Shown here: positions 2,870-25,529 of the stretch, piece by piece
Numbering within the stretch: position 1 is the first letter of the stretch
Layout: each line of letters opens with the position of its first letter
Assembly: GCA_017466405.1 (NCBI GenBank)
Contig: JAFTUF010000023.1
Coordinates: 8,962 to 40,961, forward strand
DNA: 32,000 bases
From: Bacteroidales bacterium
GTDB lineage: Bacteria > Bacteroidota > Bacteroidia > Bacteroidales > F082
Direction: 5' to 3'
The notes under the pieces: generated by a model
Told to the model about the DNA's origin: nothing
Database searches by the model: none
What the model saw: the letters and a program-made list of their open reading frames with translations, nothing else
Made by a program: the position numbers and the translations under genes

Positions 2870-2918
2870 ATCAGATTATAATTTCAAAAATTATTGTCAT
2901 TAAATGTTATTAAAAAAA

Positions 2919-2947
2919 TCCGTTGTCTGTTGTCCGTTGTCCGTTGA
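2919..2947 (+). repeat. Heptamer word array CCGTTGT/CTGTTGT/CCGTTGT/CCGTTGA
   Basis: Read directly. It shares a 21-nt identical core (tccgttgtctgttgtccgttg) with the reverse complement of 791-818 and carries one extra 7-nt unit. Confidence 0.85.
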
Positions 2948-2954
2948 CTTTTTG

Positions 2955-2962
2955 TATCTTTG
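2955..2962 (+). promoter_or_regulatory. Bacteroidota -7 box TAtcTTTG for the RNase P RNA gene
   Basis: Exact TAnnTTTG match a few nt before the predicted 5' end of rnpB. Confidence 0.55.
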
Positions 2963-2963
2963 C

Positions 2964-3330
2964 AGCTCGAAAAAGCGATTGTCGCGGGCAGGAGCAATCC
3001 TGCGTGAGGAAAGTCGGGACAGCACAGAGCACCATACTTCTTAACAGGAAGGTATCTAAAAAGATAACAGCAAGTGCCACAGAAAATTACCGCTCTCCGG
3101 AGTAAGGGTGAAAACGTGAGGTAAGAGCTCACGCGAATCTATGGTGACACAGGTTCGGGGTAAACCTTATGGGCTGCAAGACCAAATATACCGACGCCGG
3201 TCGTTCGCGACCAAAAAGGCTGCTCGTCTGAGTCGGGAGGGTAGGTTGCTTGAGTCTTCCGGCAACGTAAGACCTAGAGAAATGACAATCACCTTGGAAA
3301 CAAGGAACAGAATCCCGCTTATGCTTTTAG
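2964..3330 (+). ncRNA. rnpB: RNase P RNA, bacterial type A
   Basis: Universally conserved blocks are present: GAGGAAAGTCGGGAC (3006-3020), AGGGTGAAAACGTGAGGTAAGAGCTCACG (3105-3133) and ACAGAATCCCGCTTA (3307-3321). AAAAGC near the 5' end can pair with GCTTTT near the 3' end as P1. The ends are approximate to about 5 nt. Confidence 0.9.
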
Positions 3331-3337
3331 AAAAAAA

Positions 3338-3362
3338 AGAGTCCTTGCGGGCTCTTTTTTTT
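3338..3362 (+). terminator. Intrinsic terminator after rnpB
   Basis: Stem agagtcc/gggctct (7 bp, one G-U), loop ttgc, then a run of 8 or more T. Confidence 0.7.
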
Positions 3363-3363
3363 A

Positions 3364-3399
3364 GTTACTGAGTTGCTGAGTTGCTAAGATGCTAAGTGA
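3364..3399 (+). repeat. Octamer word array (GTYRCYRA family), about 4.5 units
   Basis: gttactga gttgctga gttgctaa gatgctaa gtgag. Same unit family as 1752-1824. Confidence 0.8.
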
Positions 3400-6541: not shown

Positions 6542-8185
6542 ATGAAAAAAATAAATATCGTCACGACAATATTTCTCGTCATCTTAGGCATAACATTAAA
6601 CGCTCAATCGCATAACGAAGAAGTCACCATCGAAGGCTCTTACACTCCGCATATCAAGAAGTCGGCGCGTATCGGCATAAAACCTGAGATGCCAAAACGA
6701 GAGTTCAACATACCGAATCATGAAGTAAACACAGAAGATTTCTTCTACAGCTATAAAGTCGATTTGGAACCTATAAGTCCGTTGCAATACACACAAAAAG
6801 AATTCTACGACATCACCAACAACTTCATCAAGTTCGGATTAGGAACACGTCTCTCACCAGACCTCCTCTTCCGTCATTATTCAGAATTGTCGAGAAAGAC
6901 AAGCCTCGGCATAGGTCTCACCCACAACTCCACCTGGACCAATATGAAAGACTACGACAACTCGAAGTACATGAACAACGCCTTCAACTTGTCGATGAAC
7001 AATAAATTCTCCAGTTTCCAGCTGCGTACATTTATCGATTACCACTACGACATGTACAATCTGAAATACAAACCCGAAATCAACACCGACGACGCTCCCG
7101 ACACCAAAAGATTCATCAACTCATTAGGTGTAAAATTACTGTCCAACAACAACCAGACAAGCTACAGGTCACTCTACGACGAGTTCCTTTTAGATTATAA
7201 CTACACCGGAATACGAGGCGGAGTGATGGAAAACCTCATAAAGTTTAATGCCTATTTAGAACATTCCAACTCATGGTTCAGAAACAGCGACGGGATACAG
7301 ACGCTGTCCGTCGATGTCAAGGCAGAACTTAACAACATCTCGCAGACATTATTCATCATCTCTGCCAACCCTCGTCTCGACTTCGACGGCGAATACTACA
7401 ACCTTCACCTCGGTTTTCGCGTCGATGCCAAGACGAACTCCACAAGTATGGGAGGCATATACCCTGACATCAAAGGAAGCCTTTACCTCTTCGAAAGAAA
7501 ACTCGAGCTCTACGCAGGATTAGGAGGAAAGACAAAGATAAACACCTTAAAAGAGATATTGTCGGAAAACCCTTTCATCATCTCCGACCTGACAAATATG
7601 GGCGAGTTTGATTATGAAAAAACGAAAATCGACTTCAAAGGTGGATTGAAATTCAAAGTGTATGACAATTTCAGTTTACATACTGGAGTACGTTACAGAA
7701 TGATAGACAATTACGTATTATTTATAGAGACACCTTCATATAATAAATTACGTACCTTTGACGTAATCTTGGAAGACTGCAAAATATTAAACTTCGTAGC
7801 AGACATACATTTGAGAATCAGTGATGATATTAAGGTTGCAGCCGATTTCTCATATAACCTTTACGACCTTTACAAGGAAGTAGCAAAGGCATGGTATAAG
7901 CCAGCTTTCGAATTCAAGCTGAAAGGATTTTACAATTATAACGAACATTGGAATTTCAATATAGCAACATACGTAGAAGGAAAGCGATACGCTTTGTCAT
8001 ACGATGATGCGGTTAAAGAATTAAAGCCAATCTGCGACATTCAATTAGGCTGCGACTATAACTTCAGAGACAACCTCTCGTTCTACGCTGAAATAAAGAA
8101 TTTGATTCATAACAAATACCAATTATATTACGACTATCCGAGCTACGGATTCCAGGCGTTCTTAGGATTCAAATATAGATTTTGA
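6542..8185 (+). CDS. Putative outer-membrane beta-barrel (porin-like) protein
   Basis: 547 aa counted from the ATG at 6542. It has a signal peptide (MKKINIVTTIFLVILGITLNAQ), alternating aromatic/polar beta-strand patterns and a C-terminal ...GFKYRF with terminal Phe, typical of OM barrels. The family is not assigned. Confidence 0.7.
   Translation: MKKINIVTTIFLVILGITLNAQSHNEEVTIEGSYTPHIKKSARIGIKPEMPKREFNIPNHEVNTEDFFYSYKVDLEPISPLQYTQKEFYDITNNFIKFGLGTRLSPDLLFRHYSELSRKTSLGIGLTHNSTWTNMKDYDNSKYMNNAFNLSMNNKFSSFQLRTFIDYHYDMYNLKYKPEINTDDAPDTKRFINSLGVKLLSNNNQTSYRSLYDEFLLDYNYTGIRGGVMENLIKFNAYLEHSNSWFRNSDGIQTLSVDVKAELNNISQTLFIISANPRLDFDGEYYNLHLGFRVDAKTNSTSMGGIYPDIKGSLYLFERKLELYAGLGGKTKINTLKEILSENPFIISDLTNMGEFDYEKTKIDFKGGLKFKVYDNFSLHTGVRYRMIDNYVLFIETPSYNKLRTFDVILEDCKILNFVADIHLRISDDIKVAADFSYNLYDLYKEVAKAWYKPAFEFKLKGFYNYNEHWNFNIATYVEGKRYALSYDDAVKELKPICDIQLGCDYNFRDNLSFYAEIKNLIHNKYQLYYDYPSYGFQAFLGFKYRF
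8154..8185 (+). repeat. Left copy of a perfect 32-bp direct repeat AGGCGTTCTTAGGATTCAAATATAGATTTTGA
   Basis: Identical to 9487-9518. It covers the last 10 codons and the stop of the beta-barrel ORF. Confidence 0.95.
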
Positions 8186-8202
8186 GGAAAGGCGAAAGAT
8201 AG

Positions 8203-8236
8203 AAGGCGAAGAATGTAAAAAACTTTCGCCTTTTGT
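8203..8236 (+). terminator. Intrinsic terminator-like hairpin after the beta-barrel gene
   Basis: Stem aaggcgaa/ttcgcctt (8 bp), 14-nt loop, followed by ttgtttta. Confidence 0.5.
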
Positions 8237-8257
8237 TTTATATACATGGATTTTTAT

Positions 8258-8265
8258 TATCTTTG
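8258..8265 (+). promoter_or_regulatory. Bacteroidota -7 box TAtcTTTG for the ATPase gene
   Basis: Exact TAnnTTTG match 36 nt upstream of the ATG at 8302. Confidence 0.5.
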
Positions 8266-8301
8266 TAAAATTTAAAATACAACTTTAAATTTGTCCACAA
8301 T

Positions 8302-9498
8302 ATGAATAATCAGTTGATAAATAGAGAATTATTAGACTCCATTAATAATGCATTCAGATATTTTTCAGTATTAACACTTACAGGACCGCGTCAATCCGGG
8401 AAAACAACACTATGTAGAAAATTATTTGCTGATTTGCCATATTATAATTTCGAAGACATAGCGACCCTATCGGCATTTCAACATGATCCAAAATCATTCT
8501 TAACAAAGCATGACGAAGGGATGATTATTGATGAATCACAAAGATTTCCAGACATCTTTTCATATTTGCAGGTTATTGTTGACGAGCAAAATTTTACAGG
8601 AGAAAGAAAAAGAAAATATATAGTGACAGGAAGTTCTAATTTTTCATTGATGCAGAAAGCAACTCAATCAATGGCAGGAAGAACTGCTGTGATGACCTTA
8701 CTGCCATTATCTACACAAGAGATTGACACAATGTATCCAGACGCGAAGACTGACACTCGTATTCTACGTGGAGGTTATCCTGCAATATGGAAAACAGATG
8801 ATGAAGGACGTAATTTCCTGCTCAGCAACTACTACACAACATACGTCGAACGTGATTTACGTAGTATGATAAATATTAAGGACTTGACCCAATTCAATAC
8901 ATTCATCAGACTTTGTGCAGGACGTATTGGTTCTGAATGTAACGCCTCAGCATTGTCGGTGGAAGTCGGAGTCAGCGTTCCTACAATTCAATCATGGTTA
9001 AGCATTCTCGAAGCATCATATATCATTTACAGATTGCATCCTTATCATGCCAATATCGGCAAACGTCTTACCAAGACTCCAAAACTATATTTCCACGACA
9101 CTGGTTTAGCTGCATGGTTAATTGGAATTCGTTCTGAAGAGCAACTGTCGGTACATCCATTACGAGGAAATTTATTTGAGAACATGGTTATCAATGATTT
9201 TCAAAAATATTATTTCAACAGAGCAGAACGCGCAGATTTATTTTTCTACAGAGACAAAGGACAACACGAAGCTGACCTACTCCAAATGAATGCTGATGGA
9301 AGAATACATGCTTACGAAATAAAGTCATCAATGACATATAGAAACGATTTCTTCGATGGTTTACATTACATACAAAACCTTTTAAAAGATAATTTTATAT
9401 CAGGCTCACTACTATATGACGGGGTACAAGAATCCATTCAGCAATACGATTCATATTGCAATTACAGAAACTTTCCGAAATTATTGAGGCGTTCTTAG
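8302..9498 (+). CDS. AAA+ ATPase with C-terminal DUF4143-type (PD-(D/E)xK-like) domain
   Basis: 398 aa with Walker A LTGPRQSGKTT, Walker B MIIDESQ, and a C-terminal HEADLL...HAYEIK (D...ExK). This layout is typical of the AAA_14/DUF4143 proteins common in Bacteroidota. Confidence 0.85.
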   Translation: MNNQLINRELLDSINNAFRYFSVLTLTGPRQSGKTTLCRKLFADLPYYNFEDIATLSAFQHDPKSFLTKHDEGMIIDESQRFPDIFSYLQVIVDEQNFTGERKRKYIVTGSSNFSLMQKATQSMAGRTAVMTLLPLSTQEIDTMYPDAKTDTRILRGGYPAIWKTDDEGRNFLLSNYYTTYVERDLRSMINIKDLTQFNTFIRLCAGRIGSECNASALSVEVGVSVPTIQSWLSILEASYIIYRLHPYHANIGKRLTKTPKLYFHDTGLAAWLIGIRSEEQLSVHPLRGNLFENMVINDFQKYYFNRAERADLFFYRDKGQHEADLLQMNADGRIHAYEIKSSMTYRNDFFDGLHYIQNLLKDNFISGSLLYDGVQESIQQYDSYCNYRNFPKLLRRS

Positions 9499-9518
9499 GA
9501 TTCAAATATAGATTTTGA
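9487..9518 (+). repeat. Right copy of the perfect 32-bp direct repeat
   Basis: Identical to 8154-8185. It supplies the last 3 codons (RRS) and the TAG stop of the ATPase ORF, in a different frame from the barrel gene. Confidence 0.95.
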
Positions 9519-9775
9519 CTCGGACACGGACTGTTGACTAAAGATGAGACGCAGCAACAACATATTGTTTATTTTTATTGGTGTTGTTGATACGTCTCTA
9601 CGTAGGTCACTTCAGTCACTCTAAACCCTTCGCTCCTTCTATGTAATATTAAGAAACAAAAAAAACGAAAAATTATAAAATATCTTATCGACAAATTTTG
9701 TCTAAGACGATGATTTTAAAAATCTTAAGTCTTTTTATCTGAATTTTTACGATTTGATAGTATTTCCTTTTATTC

Positions 9776-9783
9776 TACTTTTG
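9776..9783 (+). promoter_or_regulatory. Orphan Bacteroidota -7 box TActTTTG
   Basis: Exact TAnnTTTG match in the non-coding gap, 30 nt upstream of an 18-codon sORF. Confidence 0.4.
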
Positions 9784-9869
9784 TGTCATTATCGTTAAAT
9801 CATATTAAAGTTATGGAGAATAAGAAAAACAACATACAAATATTAGGCAAGAACAGATTCATTAAATAA

Positions 9870-9916
9870 AAGTCTCTGCAAGATATGATTACAGCATTAT
9901 CTACAGAGACTTTTTT
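9870..9916 (+). terminator. Intrinsic terminator-like hairpin after the sORF
   Basis: Stem aagtctctg/cagagactt (9 bp), 25-nt loop, then TTTTTT. Confidence 0.5.
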
Positions 9917-10011
9917 ATAATTTGATCCAATATAAATCTTCAATCATGGGAATAATGGGTTCTGCCCATAATTAAAGAGAAAAATGTTAATAAATAGAAC
10001 CCTTAATCCAT

Positions 10012-11709
10012 ATGGCAAAGCGATTTTTCGTAATATTGGCATTAGCTCTTTTTATAGGAACGAATGCCTTCTCTCAAGAATGGGAAAATATTTTAGAATA
10101 TAACAATGATGATTTTGAATGTTTTAAATTCTATGAATCTAAAGAATTATCAGATGGTAATGTTGGTGTTTCATCTGAGTATTATTACAGAAGCGGTTAT
10201 GGCGATTTTTATTCGGCGCATCCAAGTGTAGCGAAGTTTTCACCTAATGGTGTCGAATTGTGTAGGAATATTTTTTACAAGGAAGGTTACGCTGCTACAT
10301 CGAGAGCTCCTTACCTTTTTGAAAATGAAAATAATGAATTGTTCGCACTAACAACTTTTTCACCAGACCACGATTATACATATTTTAACTATTTTAAAAA
10401 TTTTGACAACCCTCCTACTGATGCAATAGTTGGATTATATAAATTGGATGAAAACTTGCAGGTTGAATATAGTTATGAACATAGTTATCCTATAGATACT
10501 TTTGAATTTAGAGGTGACTTGTTCTGGGAAAATTTTCCTAATGAAGCAAGTGGTAACATATTTATATTCTCAGCTTTCAAAGAAGAAGGCGATATAGTTG
10601 GAGCATACGTTAAGAGTGTTAGCTCAAGTCCTGATAATTCCCGCGGTAATGATTCCTTATTCTTTTTCAGAATGAATTTTGAAGGTGAATTTTTACAAAA
10701 GAAAGGATATGATGTAGGTAATGGTGGTGGAACGTGGCAAACAATTAGACGCAGGCATCATTTGATAAGAACAGAAAATCATTATTTATTGTATGATGGA
10801 ATAAACGGTGAAAGTGATGGTTATTATACGCAAGGCGTTGTAAGATACTACGATCTGAATTTTGATTATATAACGATGAAATTTATTGATTGTAAGGATT
10901 GCGGTGGAAATATATTTGAGGAATTGTCTGACATAACAGTAAAACGTAGTCGTCATAATACAACGTATTTGGTTTCATCTAAAAGAAATGATGATATTAG
11001 TCAAGATTGCAGATTATATGAAATAGATGATGATATAAATATTGCCTCTGATTATGTCACAATTAAAAGATATGTGGACAGAGGAACATCTGAATGGGAT
11101 TATTGTCCAGCTACATGCAGTGTTGATATTGCTGACGACAATTCTGTTTATTTTGCCTGTAATCTAAATAGAGGTTGGATGTGGGACCGTGATTCATACG
11201 TCATGATTGAACGTTTTGATGTTGACCTAAACAGCATATCAGTATTGTTTTATGATATTGCAGGAGGTGACGGAATAGCAACAAATGTAAGTAACATCAA
11301 TCTCACAAAAGACCAAGGTATAATACTTTGTGGTAATGCAACAGACATGCATTCAGATACCGAATTTAAATATATCACCAAATTCCCTGCATCGGCATTT
11401 GTCAACATCGAAGAAGCTCACTCTCACGGCTTGAAACTCGCTGTCGCTTATCCTAATCCGGGCGGAGATGTTATGAATATAAGAACAGGCTTGCGTAATG
11501 CAACTTTGCAGGTTTATGATATGCAAGGAAGAAAAGTCCATCAACAAATAATAACAGATGAAGTAACTTCAATAGACGCCTCGAAATGGGAGAATGGAAC
11601 GTATATTTGGGAGCTTAGAGCGGGAAACGGGAGCGGGAACGGGAGCGAGAACGGGAACGAGAACGGGAACGAGAACGGGATTTTGGAGAGCGGGAAATGG
11701 GTGAAGTAG
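10012..11709 (+). CDS. Secreted protein with T9SS C-terminal sorting domain
   Basis: 565 aa with a signal peptide (MAKRFFVILALALFIGTNAFSQ). The C-terminus AVAYPNPGGDVMNIRT...LQVYDMQGRKV...GTYIWEL...GKWVK fits the Por/T9SS CTD pattern. The N-terminal region is unassigned. Confidence 0.8.
   Translation: MAKRFFVILALALFIGTNAFSQEWENILEYNNDDFECFKFYESKELSDGNVGVSSEYYYRSGYGDFYSAHPSVAKFSPNGVELCRNIFYKEGYAATSRAPYLFENENNELFALTTFSPDHDYTYFNYFKNFDNPPTDAIVGLYKLDENLQVEYSYEHSYPIDTFEFRGDLFWENFPNEASGNIFIFSAFKEEGDIVGAYVKSVSSSPDNSRGNDSLFFFRMNFEGEFLQKKGYDVGNGGGTWQTIRRRHHLIRTENHYLLYDGINGESDGYYTQGVVRYYDLNFDYITMKFIDCKDCGGNIFEELSDITVKRSRHNTTYLVSSKRNDDISQDCRLYEIDDDINIASDYVTIKRYVDRGTSEWDYCPATCSVDIADDNSVYFACNLNRGWMWDRDSYVMIERFDVDLNSISVLFYDIAGGDGIATNVSNINLTKDQGIILCGNATDMHSDTEFKYITKFPASAFVNIEEAHSHGLKLAVAYPNPGGDVMNIRTGLRNATLQVYDMQGRKVHQQIITDEVTSIDASKWENGTYIWELRAGNGSGNGSENGNENGNENGILESGKWVK
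11617..11682 (+). repeat. Hexamer array GGGAAC/GGGAGC/GAGAAC, about 10.5 units, inside the CTD coding region
   Basis: Read directly. It encodes RAGNGSGNGSENGNENGNENG between the GTYIWEL strand and the final GKWVK. Confidence 0.9.
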
Positions 11710-11710
11710 A

Positions 11711-11745
11711 ATATGAGAAATTGAGTATCTGAGAACCTGAGAAAA
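11711..11745 (+). repeat. Octamer word array (AnYTGAGA family)
   Basis: atatgaga aattgagt atctgaga acctgaga aaact. It begins 2 nt after the stop codon and belongs to the same family as 21572-21603. Confidence 0.75.
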
Positions 11746-11760
11746 CTACGGGAGATTATC

Positions 11761-11834
11761 TTAGCAACTCAGAGACTTGGTGACTCGGTGACTCGGTGAC
11801 TTGGCGACTCGGTGACTTGGCGACTCGGTGACTT
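11761..11834 (+). repeat. Octamer word array TYRGYRAC x9 (reverse complement of the GTYRCYRA family)
   Basis: ttagcaac tcagagac ttggtgac tcggtgac tcggtgac ttggcgac tcggtgac ttggcgac tcggtgac. Confidence 0.9.
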
Positions 11835-11855: not shown

Positions 11856-11888
11856 ATCGTGCGTTGTGTAAAAATGCACGATTTTTTT
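11856..11888 (+). terminator. Intrinsic terminator
   Basis: Stem atcgtgc/gcacgat (7 bp), 13-nt loop, then TTTTTTT. Confidence 0.65.
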
Positions 11889-11890
11889 AT

Positions 11891-11898
11891 TATCTTTG
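11891..11898 (+). promoter_or_regulatory. Bacteroidota -7 box TAtcTTTG for gyrB
   Basis: Exact TAnnTTTG match 56 nt upstream of the gyrB ATG. Confidence 0.55.
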
Positions 11899-11915
11899 TG
11901 GCGATATATATTTAA

Positions 11916-21719: not shown

Positions 21720-22388
21720 ATGAACAAGGTCTCGGAAAACCCTTTAAAAAACCGATCTAATGGCGACATGCCATTTATGGTCGTGACTGCCCTCTTCGTC
21801 ACGCTTTACCTAGTGTCGAACATCATGGCAGTGAAAGTAATCAGCTTTTTAGACATCATCTATTTCGACGCAGGTACCATCACCTTCCCGTTCGCCTATA
21901 TGCTCGGCGACATCCTCACGGAGATTTGGGGCTACAAAAACGCCAAGAAAGTCATCTGGATGACATTCCTTTGCAACATCATCATGGTGGTGTTCACTCA
22001 GTTAGGAGTCTTTCTCCCATCGCCTTCTTATCTTGAAGGAACGGCGATAGCTTACGACAGCGTCTTCACCTACGTGCCGCGCATCGTATTGGCATCGCTG
22101 ACAGGTTTCCTCCTCGGAGAGCTGTCGAACGCCTGGCTCATGGATAAGATAAAAGCCAAGCTGCACGACAAACCTCTCTGGACAAGAACGATAGGAAGTT
22201 CCATCGCGGCTCATCTCTTAGACACCGTGCCTTTCGTACTTATCGCATTCGCCGGCACAATGACATGGCGCGACATCTTGATGATGATAGCGACACAGTA
22301 TTTCATGAAACTCGGCATCGAAGTATTTTTTGGAACACCTCTCGCCTACGCCGGAGTCAATTATCTTAAAAAAAGAATTAAAGGTTAA
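21720..22388 (+). CDS. yhhQ: Queuosine-precursor transporter, YhhQ/DUF165 (VUT) family
   Basis: 222-aa polytopic membrane protein. The block FPFAYMLGDILTEIWGYKNAKKVIW resembles the conserved YhhQ family core. Confidence 0.75.
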   Translation: MNKVSENPLKNRSNGDMPFMVVTALFVTLYLVSNIMAVKVISFLDIIYFDAGTITFPFAYMLGDILTEIWGYKNAKKVIWMTFLCNIIMVVFTQLGVFLPSPSYLEGTAIAYDSVFTYVPRIVLASLTGFLLGELSNAWLMDKIKAKLHDKPLWTRTIGSSIAAHLLDTVPFVLIAFAGTMTWRDILMMIATQYFMKLGIEVFFGTPLAYAGVNYLKKRIKG

Positions 22389-22398
22389 AAGCAACAAG

Positions 22399-22434
22399 CA
22401 ACGGGCAATAGCAGAATATTGTCCGTTGTTTGTT
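22399..22434 (+). terminator. Hairpin terminator; copy 1 of a 33-bp repeat
   Basis: caacgggcaata-gcagaa-tattgtccgttg (12-bp stem, one G-U) followed by ttt. The 33 nt at 22399-22431 are identical to 24198-24230. Confidence 0.6.
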
Positions 22435-22618
22435 TATTAAAAGGACACATTCAATGTGTCCGTACATTGTAAAAGCATTATCATGAAATCCATACCACTA
22501 ATAATCAATTACTTATCCCAATATTTTTTTTTATAAATCGCTTGGATTTTTAATAAATAATTTACATCTTTGTAAGCACATAGCAAACAATAATTATTCA
22601 TTGAAAATTCACATCATT

Positions 22619-24172
22619 ATGAAAAGAATTGCATTAATATTTTTAATGACATTTGTCGGGATGACATTTGTCAAAGCTCAGGAACAGATGGGAGTCAAAA
22701 ACGTCAAAGGCAACTTCATTGAGGAAAATAAAGTCAAGCTTTCGTGGACAAACGAAGATGTAGGTCCATATTGGGGTAATCCAGAATGCGATCTTATCAC
22801 ACACGAGAATGCCGGATACAATAACGGATGGAGCATCAGTTCATTACACAGTGGATTAGGTTCATTAGGTTTCGCTGCCGACCATGAGAATGGATATAAA
22901 GTCATGGAAAAGTTTACTTGTTACGAAGCATTCTACCTCAGGTTCTATCTTTATGAAGGAGCGACTCCATTCTCGACCATCAACGAGGCATATATAACAA
23001 TTTACGACGGAGACCCTCTCAACGGCGGCAATGTAATTGCAGGCGGCGATGATAAAAATCGCTTTTTAAGAGGCGGCAATGCAAATATATATCGTGTTGC
23101 TGAAAACGACTTCTCCGATGTCAGCCGTCCTATCTTCTACGTTGATGTTGATATTAATGAATTGGCAGACAACCACGAGGAAAAGACATTTTGGTTTGTA
23201 GCCTCATTTGCAGGAACGTTAAATTCAGATATCGCTCAGGTTCACGTGGTTCCTCAAACGATATTAGGAGAGACGACTACTGGAGAAGCAAGAATATATT
23301 CCCCAATTACAGATTGGCAGCCAATGTTAGACGTAAACACACAAACTCAACAAGGCATCGCTATTGAAACATTAGGTTATGAAGATGCTGGAGGAGTTGT
23401 GATGTATGTCGATAGCTGCAGAGTATATCGTAACGGAGAACTTATAAGTCAGTTTGCTCCTGACGACTACAGCAGTGTCACCTTTGTAGATGAGGACGCA
23501 CCTCATGGTACAAATATCTACGGTATCCAGAATGTATTTTGCTCATGGGATGAAGGCACTTCAATGGTTTATAATTGCGATGTCCGTCCATCATATAGTC
23601 CTAAAAACGCTTATTATATAAAAGTAATAAATGAAGAAGAACCAGATGCTGAAAATCCAGAAGATACAGAAGCATGGGGAATCACATACAATCTACATTG
23701 GGATATGGAAGATGAGATAGAAGGAGAGAATATAAAGACTTTTTATAACATTTATCGTAAAGAAGCTTCCGAGGACAACTTCACCCTAACTATGAGTATT
23801 CCAAAAGATAATAATAATTTTGAATTTTCAGATACAAGACCTATCGGTTCATACGAATATAAAATATGTACCTACAATGTTTATGAAACAGGTTCCTCAG
23901 AAAGCCAGAAAGTTATGTTTGAAGACAGAGGGTTTTTAGATATTAAGGAAGCCGATATTAATTTAAGTGTCTATCCAAATCCTACAGATAGAATAATAAA
24001 CATCGAGATGCAAGATTTCTCACACGCAGAGATTACAGATCTGACAGGACGCATCGTCGGACGTTATTCAAACAACATCATCGACATGAAGACTCTGACA
24101 GAAGGAGTTTACTTCGTAAAAATCTTTGACACTCACAACAATTATACAATAGAGAAAGTAGTTAGGAAATAA
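22619..24172 (+). CDS. Secreted protein with T9SS C-terminal sorting domain
   Basis: 517 aa counted from the ATG at 22619, with a signal peptide (MKRIALIFLMTFVGMTFVKAQ). The C-terminus LSVYPNPTDRIINIEM...ITDLTGRIV...GVYFVKIF...IEKVVRK fits the T9SS CTD pattern. FN3-like segments are present. Confidence 0.8.
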   Translation: MKRIALIFLMTFVGMTFVKAQEQMGVKNVKGNFIEENKVKLSWTNEDVGPYWGNPECDLITHENAGYNNGWSISSLHSGLGSLGFAADHENGYKVMEKFTCYEAFYLRFYLYEGATPFSTINEAYITIYDGDPLNGGNVIAGGDDKNRFLRGGNANIYRVAENDFSDVSRPIFYVDVDINELADNHEEKTFWFVASFAGTLNSDIAQVHVVPQTILGETTTGEARIYSPITDWQPMLDVNTQTQQGIAIETLGYEDAGGVVMYVDSCRVYRNGELISQFAPDDYSSVTFVDEDAPHGTNIYGIQNVFCSWDEGTSMVYNCDVRPSYSPKNAYYIKVINEEEPDAENPEDTEAWGITYNLHWDMEDEIEGENIKTFYNIYRKEASEDNFTLTMSIPKDNNNFEFSDTRPIGSYEYKICTYNVYETGSSESQKVMFEDRGFLDIKEADINLSVYPNPTDRIINIEMQDFSHAEITDLTGRIVGRYSNNIIDMKTLTEGVYFVKIFDTHNNYTIEKVVRK

Positions 24173-24197
24173 GAATGCGATTCATATAATAAACCGA

Positions 24198-24233
24198 CAA
24201 CGGGCAATAGCAGAATATTGTCCGTTGTTTCTT
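24198..24233 (+). terminator. Hairpin terminator; copy 2 of the 33-bp repeat
   Basis: Same hairpin as at 22399-22431, followed by ctttt. Confidence 0.6.
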
Positions 24234-24301
24234 TTATAAACTTTAAATTGTTATATTTGTTAGTATCGAATAAATATATTTGACATTATCAAATAAATAT
24301 T

Positions 24302-24323: not shown

Positions 24324-25529
24324 ATGATTACCAAAGAGATATTAGAAAATGTAATTGACAACCAGCAGAAAGACTTTGAAAGGATTAATGCAGGATTACA
24401 AAGGGACGTATTTGCCAGCATACCGCAGATAGATTCTTTCGCCACAGTTGTAACTGGATTGAGACGATGTGGGAAAAGTACTCTGCTGCTACAAAAGCTT
24501 CGTGAAGAGAAAAGAAAGGTAGTATTTATAAATTTTGACGATATCAGATTCAGTTCATTTGATGCAACCGACTTTAACAGACTCCATCTCATCTTGAAAG
24601 AAAGAAATATTGAGGTAGTATTTTTAGATGAAATTCAGATAATGGACAAATGGGAAGTATTCGTGCATCAATTGTTAAGAGAATCATTTACAGTTTATGT
24701 TACAGGTTCTAACGCCTCACTTTTAAGTATAGAGATGTCTTCACATCTTACTGGACGTAACATAGGTTTTGAATTATTTCCTTTTTCCTATAATGAGTTT
24801 TTGAAGTATGAAGGATTGAATCCATCCGTAGAAACTGCCAAACAATATATGGAATTTGGAGGAATGCCTGAATATGTTAAAAACAAGCAGAAAATCATAC
24901 TTTCTCAATTAGTTGATGACATCTTACTGAAAGACATAGCTGTAAGATATTCTATTAGAGACATCTCATCATTAAGGATGTTGGCTTCATATTTAATTTC
25001 AAATGTTGGTAATTATATATCTTCAAACAAATTGGCTGGCATGTTCAACATTAAATCAGTGTCTGCCATCAACGAATATCTCTCATATATTGAAAACGCT
25101 TATCTGTTTTTCTTTGTTCCGTTTTTCAATTATTCATTGAGAGTACAGCAGCGACATCCTCGCAAGATTTATGCAATTGATACAGGAATAATTTCCGCAT
25201 TATCAAGATCAATGAAAGATGACTATGGTCATATTTTGGAAAATCTTGTCTTCTTACATTTGAGAAGAAAATACAAACAGATTTATTACTATCAAAACAA
25301 AGGCGAATGTGATTTCGTAGCTATTGATGACAGTAATAAATATTTGATTCAAGTTTGCAGCGAGTTAACCGACTTCAATACCGAACGAGAACTTAACGGC
25401 ATTTTCAATGCACTTGACGATTTATCAGTCGTAAATGGAAAAATTGTGACATTTTCGCAAAAAGACATTTTCACTTACAACAACAAAGTCGTCAATGTAA
25501 TTCCATTACACGAATATCTCTTGGAATAG
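24324..25529 (+). CDS. AAA+ ATPase with C-terminal DUF4143-type domain (second paralogue)
   Basis: 401 aa with Walker A VTGLRRCGKST and Walker B VFLDEIQ. The C-terminal GECDFV...YLIQVC aligns with the D...ExK region of the first paralogue. Confidence 0.85.
   Translation: MITKEILENVIDNQQKDFERINAGLQRDVFASIPQIDSFATVVTGLRRCGKSTLLLQKLREEKRKVVFINFDDIRFSSFDATDFNRLHLILKERNIEVVFLDEIQIMDKWEVFVHQLLRESFTVYVTGSNASLLSIEMSSHLTGRNIGFELFPFSYNEFLKYEGLNPSVETAKQYMEFGGMPEYVKNKQKIILSQLVDDILLKDIAVRYSIRDISSLRMLASYLISNVGNYISSNKLAGMFNIKSVSAINEYLSYIENAYLFFFVPFFNYSLRVQQRHPRKIYAIDTGIISALSRSMKDDYGHILENLVFLHLRRKYKQIYYYQNKGECDFVAIDDSNKYLIQVCSELTDFNTERELNGIFNALDDLSVVNGKIVTFSQKDIFTYNNKVVNVIPLHEYLLE

Follow-up and report, generated by a model that had tools for sequence, protein, structure and literature searches.

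How does a single ATPase gene, with no recombinase gene of its own, come to lie between two perfect copies of the 3' end of the neighbouring gene? The question is raised by a 32,000-nt stretch of contig JAFTUF010000023.1 from a Bacteroidales bacterium (the window; coordinates are positions in it, and L-numbers denote contigs or loci fetched for comparison). The unit concerned is a single-gene cassette with its own promoter, a putative palindromic operator and a captured terminator; it lies directly behind the stop codon of a gene for an outer-membrane beta-barrel-like protein (the barrel gene), upstream of gyrB. By sequence comparison, the cassette is horizontally mobile between several gut and rumen Bacteroidales species; it is 97–100% identical across hosts in which the flanking genes are 72–90% identical. 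An empty site, transfer between species, the breakpoints, the host or donor origin of each repeat copy and the spread of a defective copy were seen directly in the contigs compared and are described below. The features of the locus are as follows (open reading frame, ORF; type IX secretion system, T9SS; AlphaFold, AF2; a slash marks a junction).

6542–8185 (+), target gene, 547-aa outer-membrane beta-barrel-like protein (ORF list; called from 6542 in public assemblies)
8154–8185 (+), left 32-mer copy, the host's own gene end (..QAFLGFKYRF, TGA; host-specific variants elsewhere)
8186–8198 (+), two residual 'xxGAAAG' units, GGAAAG GCGAAAG (junctions of L016, L018, L057, L030 and L004 compared)
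8196–8239 (+), terminator-like hairpin with U-rich 3' arm (fold -17.4 kcal/mol, z = -4.1; kept in the cassettes of L018, L021 and L030)
8251–8266 (+), Bacteroidota-type promoter, -7 box TATCTTTG at 8258–8265 (sequence; family D12)
8268–8292 (+), palindrome AAATTTAAAAT-aca-ACTTTAAATTT between promoter and start codon (sequence)
8302–9498 (+), 398-aa AAA+ ATPase with PD-(D/E)XK nuclease domain (Pfam, PADLOC, alignment, AF2)
9487–9518 (+), right 32-mer copy, part of the mobile unit (junction TTATTG/AGGCG)
9519–9601 (+), D1, which follows the barrel gene natively; it includes a long hairpin, and its last letters are ...ACGTCTCTAC (L017 empty site; fold)
9602–11834 (+), second variable hotspot segment, T9SS-sorted protein gene 10012–11709 and its flanks (absent from L017 and L016)

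The repeat and its empty site

The initial annotation had reported a perfect 32-bp direct repeat around a single AAA_14/DUF4143 gene, and this is exact: the 32-mer, AGGCGTTCTTAGGATTCAAATATAGATTTTGA, has two copies in the window (8154–8185 and 9487–9518), no further copy was found there at up to three mismatches, and 100 shuffles gave 0 matches. The repeat is exactly 32 bp long, the adjacent bases differing on both sides, and among 69 fetched loci its core was found only at barrel-gene ends and cassette ends. The left copy had been described as the last 10 codons and stop of the barrel ORF; it does end that ORF (...QAFLGFKYRF and stop), with the correction that the first of these codons lies only partly within the repeat. 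The right copy supplies, in a different frame, the end of the ATPase ORF (AGG CGT TCT TAG, three codons and the stop), and the insert is a discrete single-gene unit, both as first proposed; likewise, neither an integrase nor a transposase was found in the insert or across the 32-kb window.

The conserved 3' end of the barrel ORF (547/558 aa) is the landing site. The barrel protein gave no match in Pfam or NCBIfam; its homologues are named TonB-dependent receptor by some sources, and its orthologues, 62–98% identical, always adjoin a tetratricopeptide repeat (TPR) gene.

An empty site had been predicted in which 8185 is joined to 9519, and it is present in the conspecific contig L017, which reads ...ATAGATTTTGA/CTTGGACACGGACTGTTGACT... 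at this point. L017 is 97.4% identical to the window over 4311 bp, with the differences evenly spread, and its barrel protein is 98% identical. The sequence from 9519 onward stands directly 3' of the stop codon in L017 and is the native flank of the barrel gene, as had been supposed. Because L017 is a k = 141 assembly of a distinct strain, its empty site is not a collapse of the 32-bp repeat, and an assembly artefact is rejected on the same ground; chance and artefact were also rejected on the absence of shuffle matches and on the presence of the same structure in independent ENA, NCBI and Logan assemblies. Empty sites of related species were found in L016 (flanks 88% identical at the nucleotide level; barrel gene followed directly by gyrB) and in L057. 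L017 is also without the T9SS-sorted protein gene 10012–11709 and runs directly into the gyrB upstream region. The interval between the barrel gene and gyrB is a variable hotspot, with conserved flanks around alternative cargo: nothing (L016, L057), D1 only (L017), the ATPase and T9SS genes (window), or the ATPase and a PIF1 helicase gene (L018, L021, L045).

Transfer between species

The cassette always starts 1–8 nt past the stop codon of a barrel-gene orthologue, and identity to the window jumps at that stop codon in L030, L004 and L018. In L030, the barrel gene is 72–75% identical to that of the window (85% in the last 72 nt), the cassette 97.5–98% and D1 96.4%. In L004, the last 72 nt of the barrel gene are 86% identical, the cassette is 99.4–100% identical and encodes an identical ATPase, and the downstream sequence is 98.8% (D1) and 98.9% (post-D1) identical; the last 110 nt of its barrel gene are 97% identical to the L018-like species. 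For the species of L018, L019, L021 and L045, the values against the window are 74–84% for the flanks and 89–97% for the cassette, the 3' part of the L018 cassette being 96.6% identical. The same landing site is occupied in at least four host backgrounds, and an 86%-identical cassette (L022-type; ATPase 86% identical) occupies this gene end in a further species, within a perfect 51-bp repeat made of 40 nt of coding sequence and 11 nt past the stop codon. The exact window protein is encoded on 19 contigs, and all of those with readable upstream sequence show the barrel site except L005; for three proteins (19, 24 and 23 contigs examined) there is one site per lineage.

An internal deletion with the junction ccattaa/attggttctg (window 8345 joined to 8926) takes out the ATPase domain and is common to L018/L019 and L030, which are different hosts. 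A defective copy has spread between hosts, and movement therefore does not need the ATPase in cis.

Three further observations concern individual copies. L005 (1–73; Logan ERR15157068) has the identical ATPase gene, the right 32-mer and D1, and unrelated upstream sequence starts immediately before the promoter. L018 (8460–8653), like L019, carries inside the right 32-mer a 194-bp insertion resembling a miniature inverted-repeat transposable element (MITE), with terminal inverted repeats GGGGACTTCTATAAATT / AATTTATAGAAATCCCC and a 5-bp target duplication, TATAG. In L052 (2190–2249), a contig of the L018-like species, unrelated GC-rich DNA follows the first arm of the cassette hairpin (..TTAGAAGGCGAAAGG); this discontinuity would be either another breakpoint at the hairpin or a chimera.

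Neither a plasmid nor a phage vector was found: PLSDB gave no DNA match, and phage records and IMG/VR gave only distant protein matches of at most 47% identity. Neither the 32-mer nor the leader motif had a match in viral contigs.

Origin of the two repeat copies and breakpoints

Two explanations of the repeat had been offered initially, a target duplication made at insertion and the regeneration of the gene end by the element, and both fail on the copies themselves. The left copy differs from the canonical 32-mer at 4 of 32 positions in L030 (AGATGTTCGTAGGATTCAAATACAGATTTTGA), at two in L018 (A5 and C29) and at one in L004 (A5); the right copy is canonical, that is donor-type, in all three, although interrupted by the MITE-like insertion in L018. 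Because the left variant of L030 is the exact sequence of the empty relative L057, this copy is host-native. The host end is retained, and the copy brought by the element is unused downstream except as the last three codons and stop of the ATPase gene. The left copy thus belongs to the recipient, as the end of its own gene, whereas the right one is brought in by the cassette. This rules out both a duplication made at these insertions and gene-end regeneration.

Every cassette of the window lineage has the identical sequence TTATTG/AGGCG where the ATPase ORF meets the right 32-mer; because of this invariance, the fusion of the two would have arisen a single time, through an illegitimate join. 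With the L022-type cassette as reference, the ORF of the window lineage has lost its last few codons and the 3' untranslated region. In the L018-like species, A5 and C29 are found in the left copy of some strains and in the right copy of others, a sign that the copies have exchanged sequence or converted one another.

The breakpoints read as follows: L030, host TGAGAAAATGG..., donor TGAGGAAAGGCG..., recombinant TGAGAAAAGGCG..., with the junction spelled TGAGAAAA/GGCG; L004, host TGACGAAAGTTC..., donor TGAGGAAAGGCG..., recombinant TGACGAAAGGCG..., with the junction spelled TGAC/GAAAGGCG. All three mapped inter-species breakpoints lie within the units at 8186–8198; these units have their homologues in the heptamer arrays found natively behind the barrel stop codon of other species. 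Crossover positions were assessed for the left side: the breakpoints there lie 1–8 nt past the stop codon with the host gene end unconverted, and recipient sequence persists until a few nt from where heterology begins in L030 and L004 and, judging from C29, in L018. To the left of the breakpoints, host and donor are nearly identical over ~30 nt, and crossovers placed uniformly would give these positions with a joint probability of ~0.003 (a rough estimate).

On the right, donor DNA past 9518 was co-transferred to at least 9601, as D1 in L030 and as D1 with post-D1 sequence in L004; D1 of the window is nearer to that of L030 (96.4%) and L004 (98.8%) than to that of its conspecific L017 (89%). 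A circle with the 32-mer as its boundary would not yield a donor tract beyond the right copy. Because heptamer and octamer arrays are hypervariable, some apparent right-hand breakpoints could coincide with them trivially. A fixed left end in the recipient, together with a variable donor tract on the right, would fit copying primed from the recipient 3' end at the boundary between stop codon and array.

Parts of the cassette and the encoded protein

The terminator-like hairpin first placed at 8203–8236 is real, but its extent had to be corrected to 8196–8239, with a 16-bp stem and a 12-nt loop; owing to the length of this loop, a simple terminator scan misses it. It is probably a barrel-gene terminator from an earlier host that now forms the 5' part of the cassette. 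The -7 box of the form TAtcTTTG was found where it had been annotated; the promoter 16-mer (8251–8266) recurs before gyrB (11884–11899), and blastn homology to cassettes at other loci begins at ~8251. The core of the palindrome, AACTTTAAATTTGTCC, is kept in every member of the ATPase subfamily, down to ~62% protein identity, and more distant homologues have a different palindrome each at the same position. As an RNA hairpin the palindrome is weak (-3 kcal/mol, z = -0.6), and it is a candidate operator for autoregulation; as a recombination site it was rejected on this weak fold, on the lack of a matching motif at the 3' end and on the differing palindromes of distant homologues.

The identification of the 398-aa product was upheld by Pfam, with an N-terminal AAA_14 P-loop domain (PF13173, E = 1.1e-24) followed by DUF4143 (PF13635, E = 2.6e-48). 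PADLOC matches the ORF to its PDC-S01 models (E = 5e-101), a candidate single-gene defence system also known as COG1373 or as AAA_14 + DUF4143 'ATP-binding protein'. The residues of Walker A (G28...K34-T36), of Walker B (D77-E78) and of E323-x-D325 are invariant when the protein is aligned with 21 homologues, and those of E339-x-K341 are nearly so; the last two motifs make up a PD-(D/E)XK signature, and DUF4143 is listed within the PD-(D/E)XK superfamily. The solved structures closest to the AF2 model (pLDDT 88.5) are those of the Card1 nuclease, the archaeal Walker ATPase PAB2304, Cdc6/Orc1, STAND ATPases of Apaf-1 type and RuvB; the C-terminal alpha/beta domain of the model matches Card1, and no recombinase-like fold was found among the structural neighbours.

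We regard the gene as a candidate anti-phage gene with a putative role in defence. Among individual defence loci, PDC-S01 is reported to rank first by frequency in rumen genomes and fourth across prokaryotes, with the status of an unvalidated candidate in the literature; COG1373 is among the COGs most often common to different gut-microbiota genera, and the family is reported as horizontally transferred. The ORF agrees with PDC-S01 in both Pfam domains, the Walker A and B motifs and the E-x-D...E-x-K nuclease motif. What is described here differs in the cassette, landing site, flanking repeats and empty sites, none of which is mentioned in the searched literature, where PDC-S01 is treated as a gene family.

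Repeats around related genes

The suggestion that other DUF4143 genes would be flanked by duplications holds for relatives at several loci and fails for 13 distant homologues on viral and plasmid records, which have no flanking repeats; generality across the whole DUF4143 family was rejected accordingly. Repeats were found upstream of a putative valS gene, so labelled from its N-terminal sequence only (L023/L029; 73 bp, 70/73 identical; diverged in L024); between a DUF2461 gene and variable polysaccharide loci (P0155, L058–L067; ~98 bp, 84/98 identical); in the Prevotella contig L027 (23 bp); in L035 (~38 bp, a terminator hairpin; from a metagenome motif scan that returned 11 short contigs); and in L021 (~175 bp, the 32-mer with the heptamer array). 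No flanking repeat of this kind was found in L025, L034, L044 or L068. A crude control that took in 20 loci gave exact flanking repeats (20 bp or longer) for 10 of 17 DUF4143 genes and for 2 of 85 other ORFs; counted as independent loci of the subfamily, ~6 of 10 are repeat-flanked. The two exceptions are a gene with ATPase_2 and AAA_14 domains (L023 9085–10287) and a T9SS-sorted gene (window 22601–24172).

The flanking repeats consist of target sequence from the locus itself, with lengths between 23 and ~175 bp (23, 32, 51, 73, ~98, ~175). Those at different loci have no common core, and no conserved termini, inverted or otherwise, are shared between loci; the 5' and 3' boundaries differ everywhere, and the stretch that is homologous between loci runs from the promoter to a point within the ORF or just past it.

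Several of these loci have features of their own. In L023 (8966–10360), the 400-aa AAA ATPase (PF01637 ATPase_2 and AAA_14) directly follows the putative valS gene and is flanked by two copies of that gene's terminator hairpin, with identical arms (24 and 19 nt) and diverged loops. In the window, a 56-nt direct repeat, 84% identical (22386–22441 and 24185–24240), surrounds the T9SS-sorted gene 22601–24172; it contains a 33-nt identical core, a terminator hairpin, and its first copy begins at the stop codon of a Vut_1 transporter gene, so the architecture is like that of the cassette with a cargo that is not an ATPase. A second DUF4143/AAA_14 ATPase gene of the window (24324–25529), its product 22% identical to the first, has a 23-nt tandem repeat ahead of it (24252–24300) and no flanking direct repeat. 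P0155, a 73%-identical ATPase, always follows the DUF2461 gene; with at least five different sets of glycosyltransferase and polysaccharide genes downstream of it, it forms the border of a capsule-type locus of variable content. On an Emticicia plasmid (L079, NC_018749.1, 52229–53395), a 46%-identical DUF4143 ATPase gene without flanking repeat lies inverted within an arabinose operon, between the L-ribulose-5-phosphate 4-epimerase gene and araA. For many distinct homologues (60–87% identity), the longest Logan contig is only 1.31–1.46 kb and barely exceeds the gene, which suggests graph branch points at both ends of many cassettes, caused by repeats of at least 31 bp, multiple contexts or presence/absence polymorphism.

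How the cassette may move

We propose, at what we would call an even chance, that the cassette is passive and without an integrase, and that it has been spread by host recombination or repair at a conserved gene end after one ancestral illegitimate join. That join would have brought position -32 of a barrel gene end directly behind the last codons of the ATPase gene, and the right 32-mer copy would since have been carried as part of the cassette. Integration would be carried out by the host and not by an enzyme of the cassette: the 3' end of the recipient, 1–8 nt past the barrel stop codon at the start of the 'GAAAG' array, would pair with the donor through the conserved gene end or the array, and extension on the donor template would run through the cassette and the donor 32-mer into a variable length of donor downstream DNA, with resolution downstream. 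This copying step may be break- or fork-primed, as the breakpoint positions suggest. After installation, gene conversion would act on the two copies, and by recombining with each other they could release the host site from the cassette without a scar.

Several points weigh against this proposal. The homology in L030 is very short (runs of 13 and 9 nt within the 32-mer), which makes ordinary RecA recombination unlikely there. The different upstream sequence of L005 may represent a second insertion site or a rearrangement. No near match to the cassette that could account for its delivery was found on plasmids or phages. Finally, generic repair does not obviously explain repeats of local sequence at independent loci of the ATPase subfamily and around an ATPase_2 gene, when almost no other genes in the same contigs have them; this recurrence is not explained satisfactorily by any of the models.

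A rather unlikely alternative is a non-autonomous integrative element, comparable to a cis-mobilizable element (CIME) or IMEX, moved as a circle by a tyrosine or serine recombinase acting in trans, with the barrel-gene end as the identity segment of its attachment (att) site. Direct repeats bracket the unit and, as a copy of the barrel-gene end, resemble the identity segment of attL and attR; site fidelity across species is strict; a crossover fixed to the right edge of the identity block would leave, as is seen, a left copy of host type and a right copy of donor type; and the defective copy still moves. Bacteroidales have many integrases of the IntDOT family, the sites of which resemble TAnnTTTG(C), and two other insertions end exactly at a motif of this type. 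The junction of the hypothetical circle would read ...CCGAAATTATTG + 32-mer + GGAAAGGCG...; Logan contigs of 1361–1364 bp were rejected as evidence for such a circle, breaks from repeat to repeat being expected of a k = 31 graph at a 32-bp repeat. Against a recombinase stand the lack of a common core among repeats of 23 to ~175 bp at different loci, the donor DNA received by L030 and L004 past the right repeat, which would be missing from a circle closed at the 32-mer, the shuffling of variants between copies, as in homologous exchange rather than a fixed crossover, and the absence of a recombinase gene within the 32-kb window.

It is similarly doubtful that the ATPase-nuclease is itself the mobility enzyme, PDC-S01-type genes being selfish genes that home or insert at gene ends, terminators and promoters, generate long target duplications of variable length and mobilise defective copies in trans. 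The excess of repeats at DUF4143 genes given above (10/17, or ~6/10 independent loci, against 2/85) speaks for this, the more so as an AAA ATPase gene, that with the ATPase_2 domain, is among the two exceptions; the protein has an intact PD-(D/E)XK motif and a Walker ATPase, the family is extremely abundant and horizontally transferred, there is, as with homing genes, one site per lineage, and co-conversion is one-sided (right flank). The copies in recipients are not identical, however, so no duplication was made at those insertions; the filled allele keeps an intact junction of 32-mer and D1, the sequence of the empty site, which a homing nuclease would be expected to destroy; there are no conserved termini, and distant plasmid and viral members of the family are without flanking repeats; and other accessory genes are repeat-flanked too, such as the T9SS gene 22601–24172.

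As a broader conjecture, to which we assign a low probability, AAA+ ATPase/PD-(D/E)XK genes (PDC-S01, perhaps ATPase_2) might, in gut and rumen Bacteroidales, be selfish cassettes without an integrase, of a class so far unrecognised; their insertion next to stop codons, terminators or promoters would produce long target duplications of variable length (23 to ~175 bp) through their own nuclease or through template switching at tandem arrays, and the duplication would then be the handle for homology-guided spread.

Vertical descent without horizontal movement, from a single ancient insertion with losses by recombination between the repeats, is very improbable and contradicted by the identity steps: every contig of the L018-like species carries the cassette and repeat-mediated deletion would yield exactly the empty site of L017, but the cassette is 97–100% identical between hosts with flanks 72–86% identical and a sharp step at the stop codon, D1 of L017 differs from the window by ~11% against 2.6% for the adjacent genes, and the same deletion is found in unrelated hosts.

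Known classes of element were also compared. A dif/Xer-type site was rejected (32-mer without palindromic arms, by inspection). The cassette does not have the marks of a transposon or insertion sequence (sole ORF an ATPase, no transposase in the window, no shared termini, no target duplication of fixed length) or of an integron cassette (ORF fused directly to the 32-mer, no imperfect inverted repeat of attC type, no integrase in the window), and it departs from a homing endonuclease gene in that the right junction reproduces the empty-site sequence of L017, so the target is not destroyed. The minimal mobile elements of Neisseria and core defence hotspots are alike in having conserved flanks, here the barrel gene and gyrB, around differing cargo without mobility genes; unlike them, the cassette is exchanged beyond the circle of close relatives that have long homologous flanks, its breakpoints lie 1–8 nt from the stop codon, outside the flanking gene, and its cargo bears a copy of the gene end. 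Integrative elements that target 3' ends (tRNA-gene islands, NBU-type elements and CIMEs) share the direct repeat of the target 3' end and site fidelity across species, and an integrase-less derivative would look like a CIME; the cassette differs in that it has no integrase, does not replace the host gene end, has repeats that vary in length and content by locus and is transferred together with donor flank. Free-standing homing endonuclease genes (intronless homing) are similar in the single intergenic nuclease-containing gene, the one site per lineage and the co-conversion of the flank, and different in that here the target is undisrupted, there are flanking repeats, which are not a homing feature, and a truncated copy has spread.

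Short tandem arrays and other features of the window

Tandem arrays with units of 7–8 nt directly follow stop codons or terminators at 1751–1822, 2919–2946, 3362–3397 and 11774–11834 of the window, and likewise at L016 2370–2420 and L024 2856–2909; we know of no description of such arrays. Orthologous arrays persist with a different unit (TCCGTTG in the window, ACTTTAG in L016), the arrays on either side of the L024 cassette differ (TCTGTTG and CTTTAGC), and a module of an A-run, four heptamers and a promoter recurs ahead of genes such as that for RNase P RNA. The second hotspot segment (9602–11834) ends in the octamer array 11774–11834; both of its ends adjoin octamer-array-like sequence, and a coding 12-nt tandem repeat lies at 11618–11680. 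RNase P RNA, bacterial class A (2971–3332, 237.8 bits), was the sole Rfam match in the window, and the minus-strand ORF 2884–3132, which overlaps this RNA, is spurious.

Significance

PDC-S01 is the reported commonest single 'defence' locus in the rumen, and the searched literature is silent on how its genes move. The barrel locus provides, for one PDC-S01 gene, a matched set of filled, empty and internally deleted alleles with exact breakpoints in several species. Judged by this set, the gene crosses species boundaries without a recombinase of its own and reuses the end of a conserved core gene as its address. The route by which a major family of defence candidates spreads becomes directly testable, and so does the question of why this ATPase subfamily is so often bracketed by duplications of local sequence.

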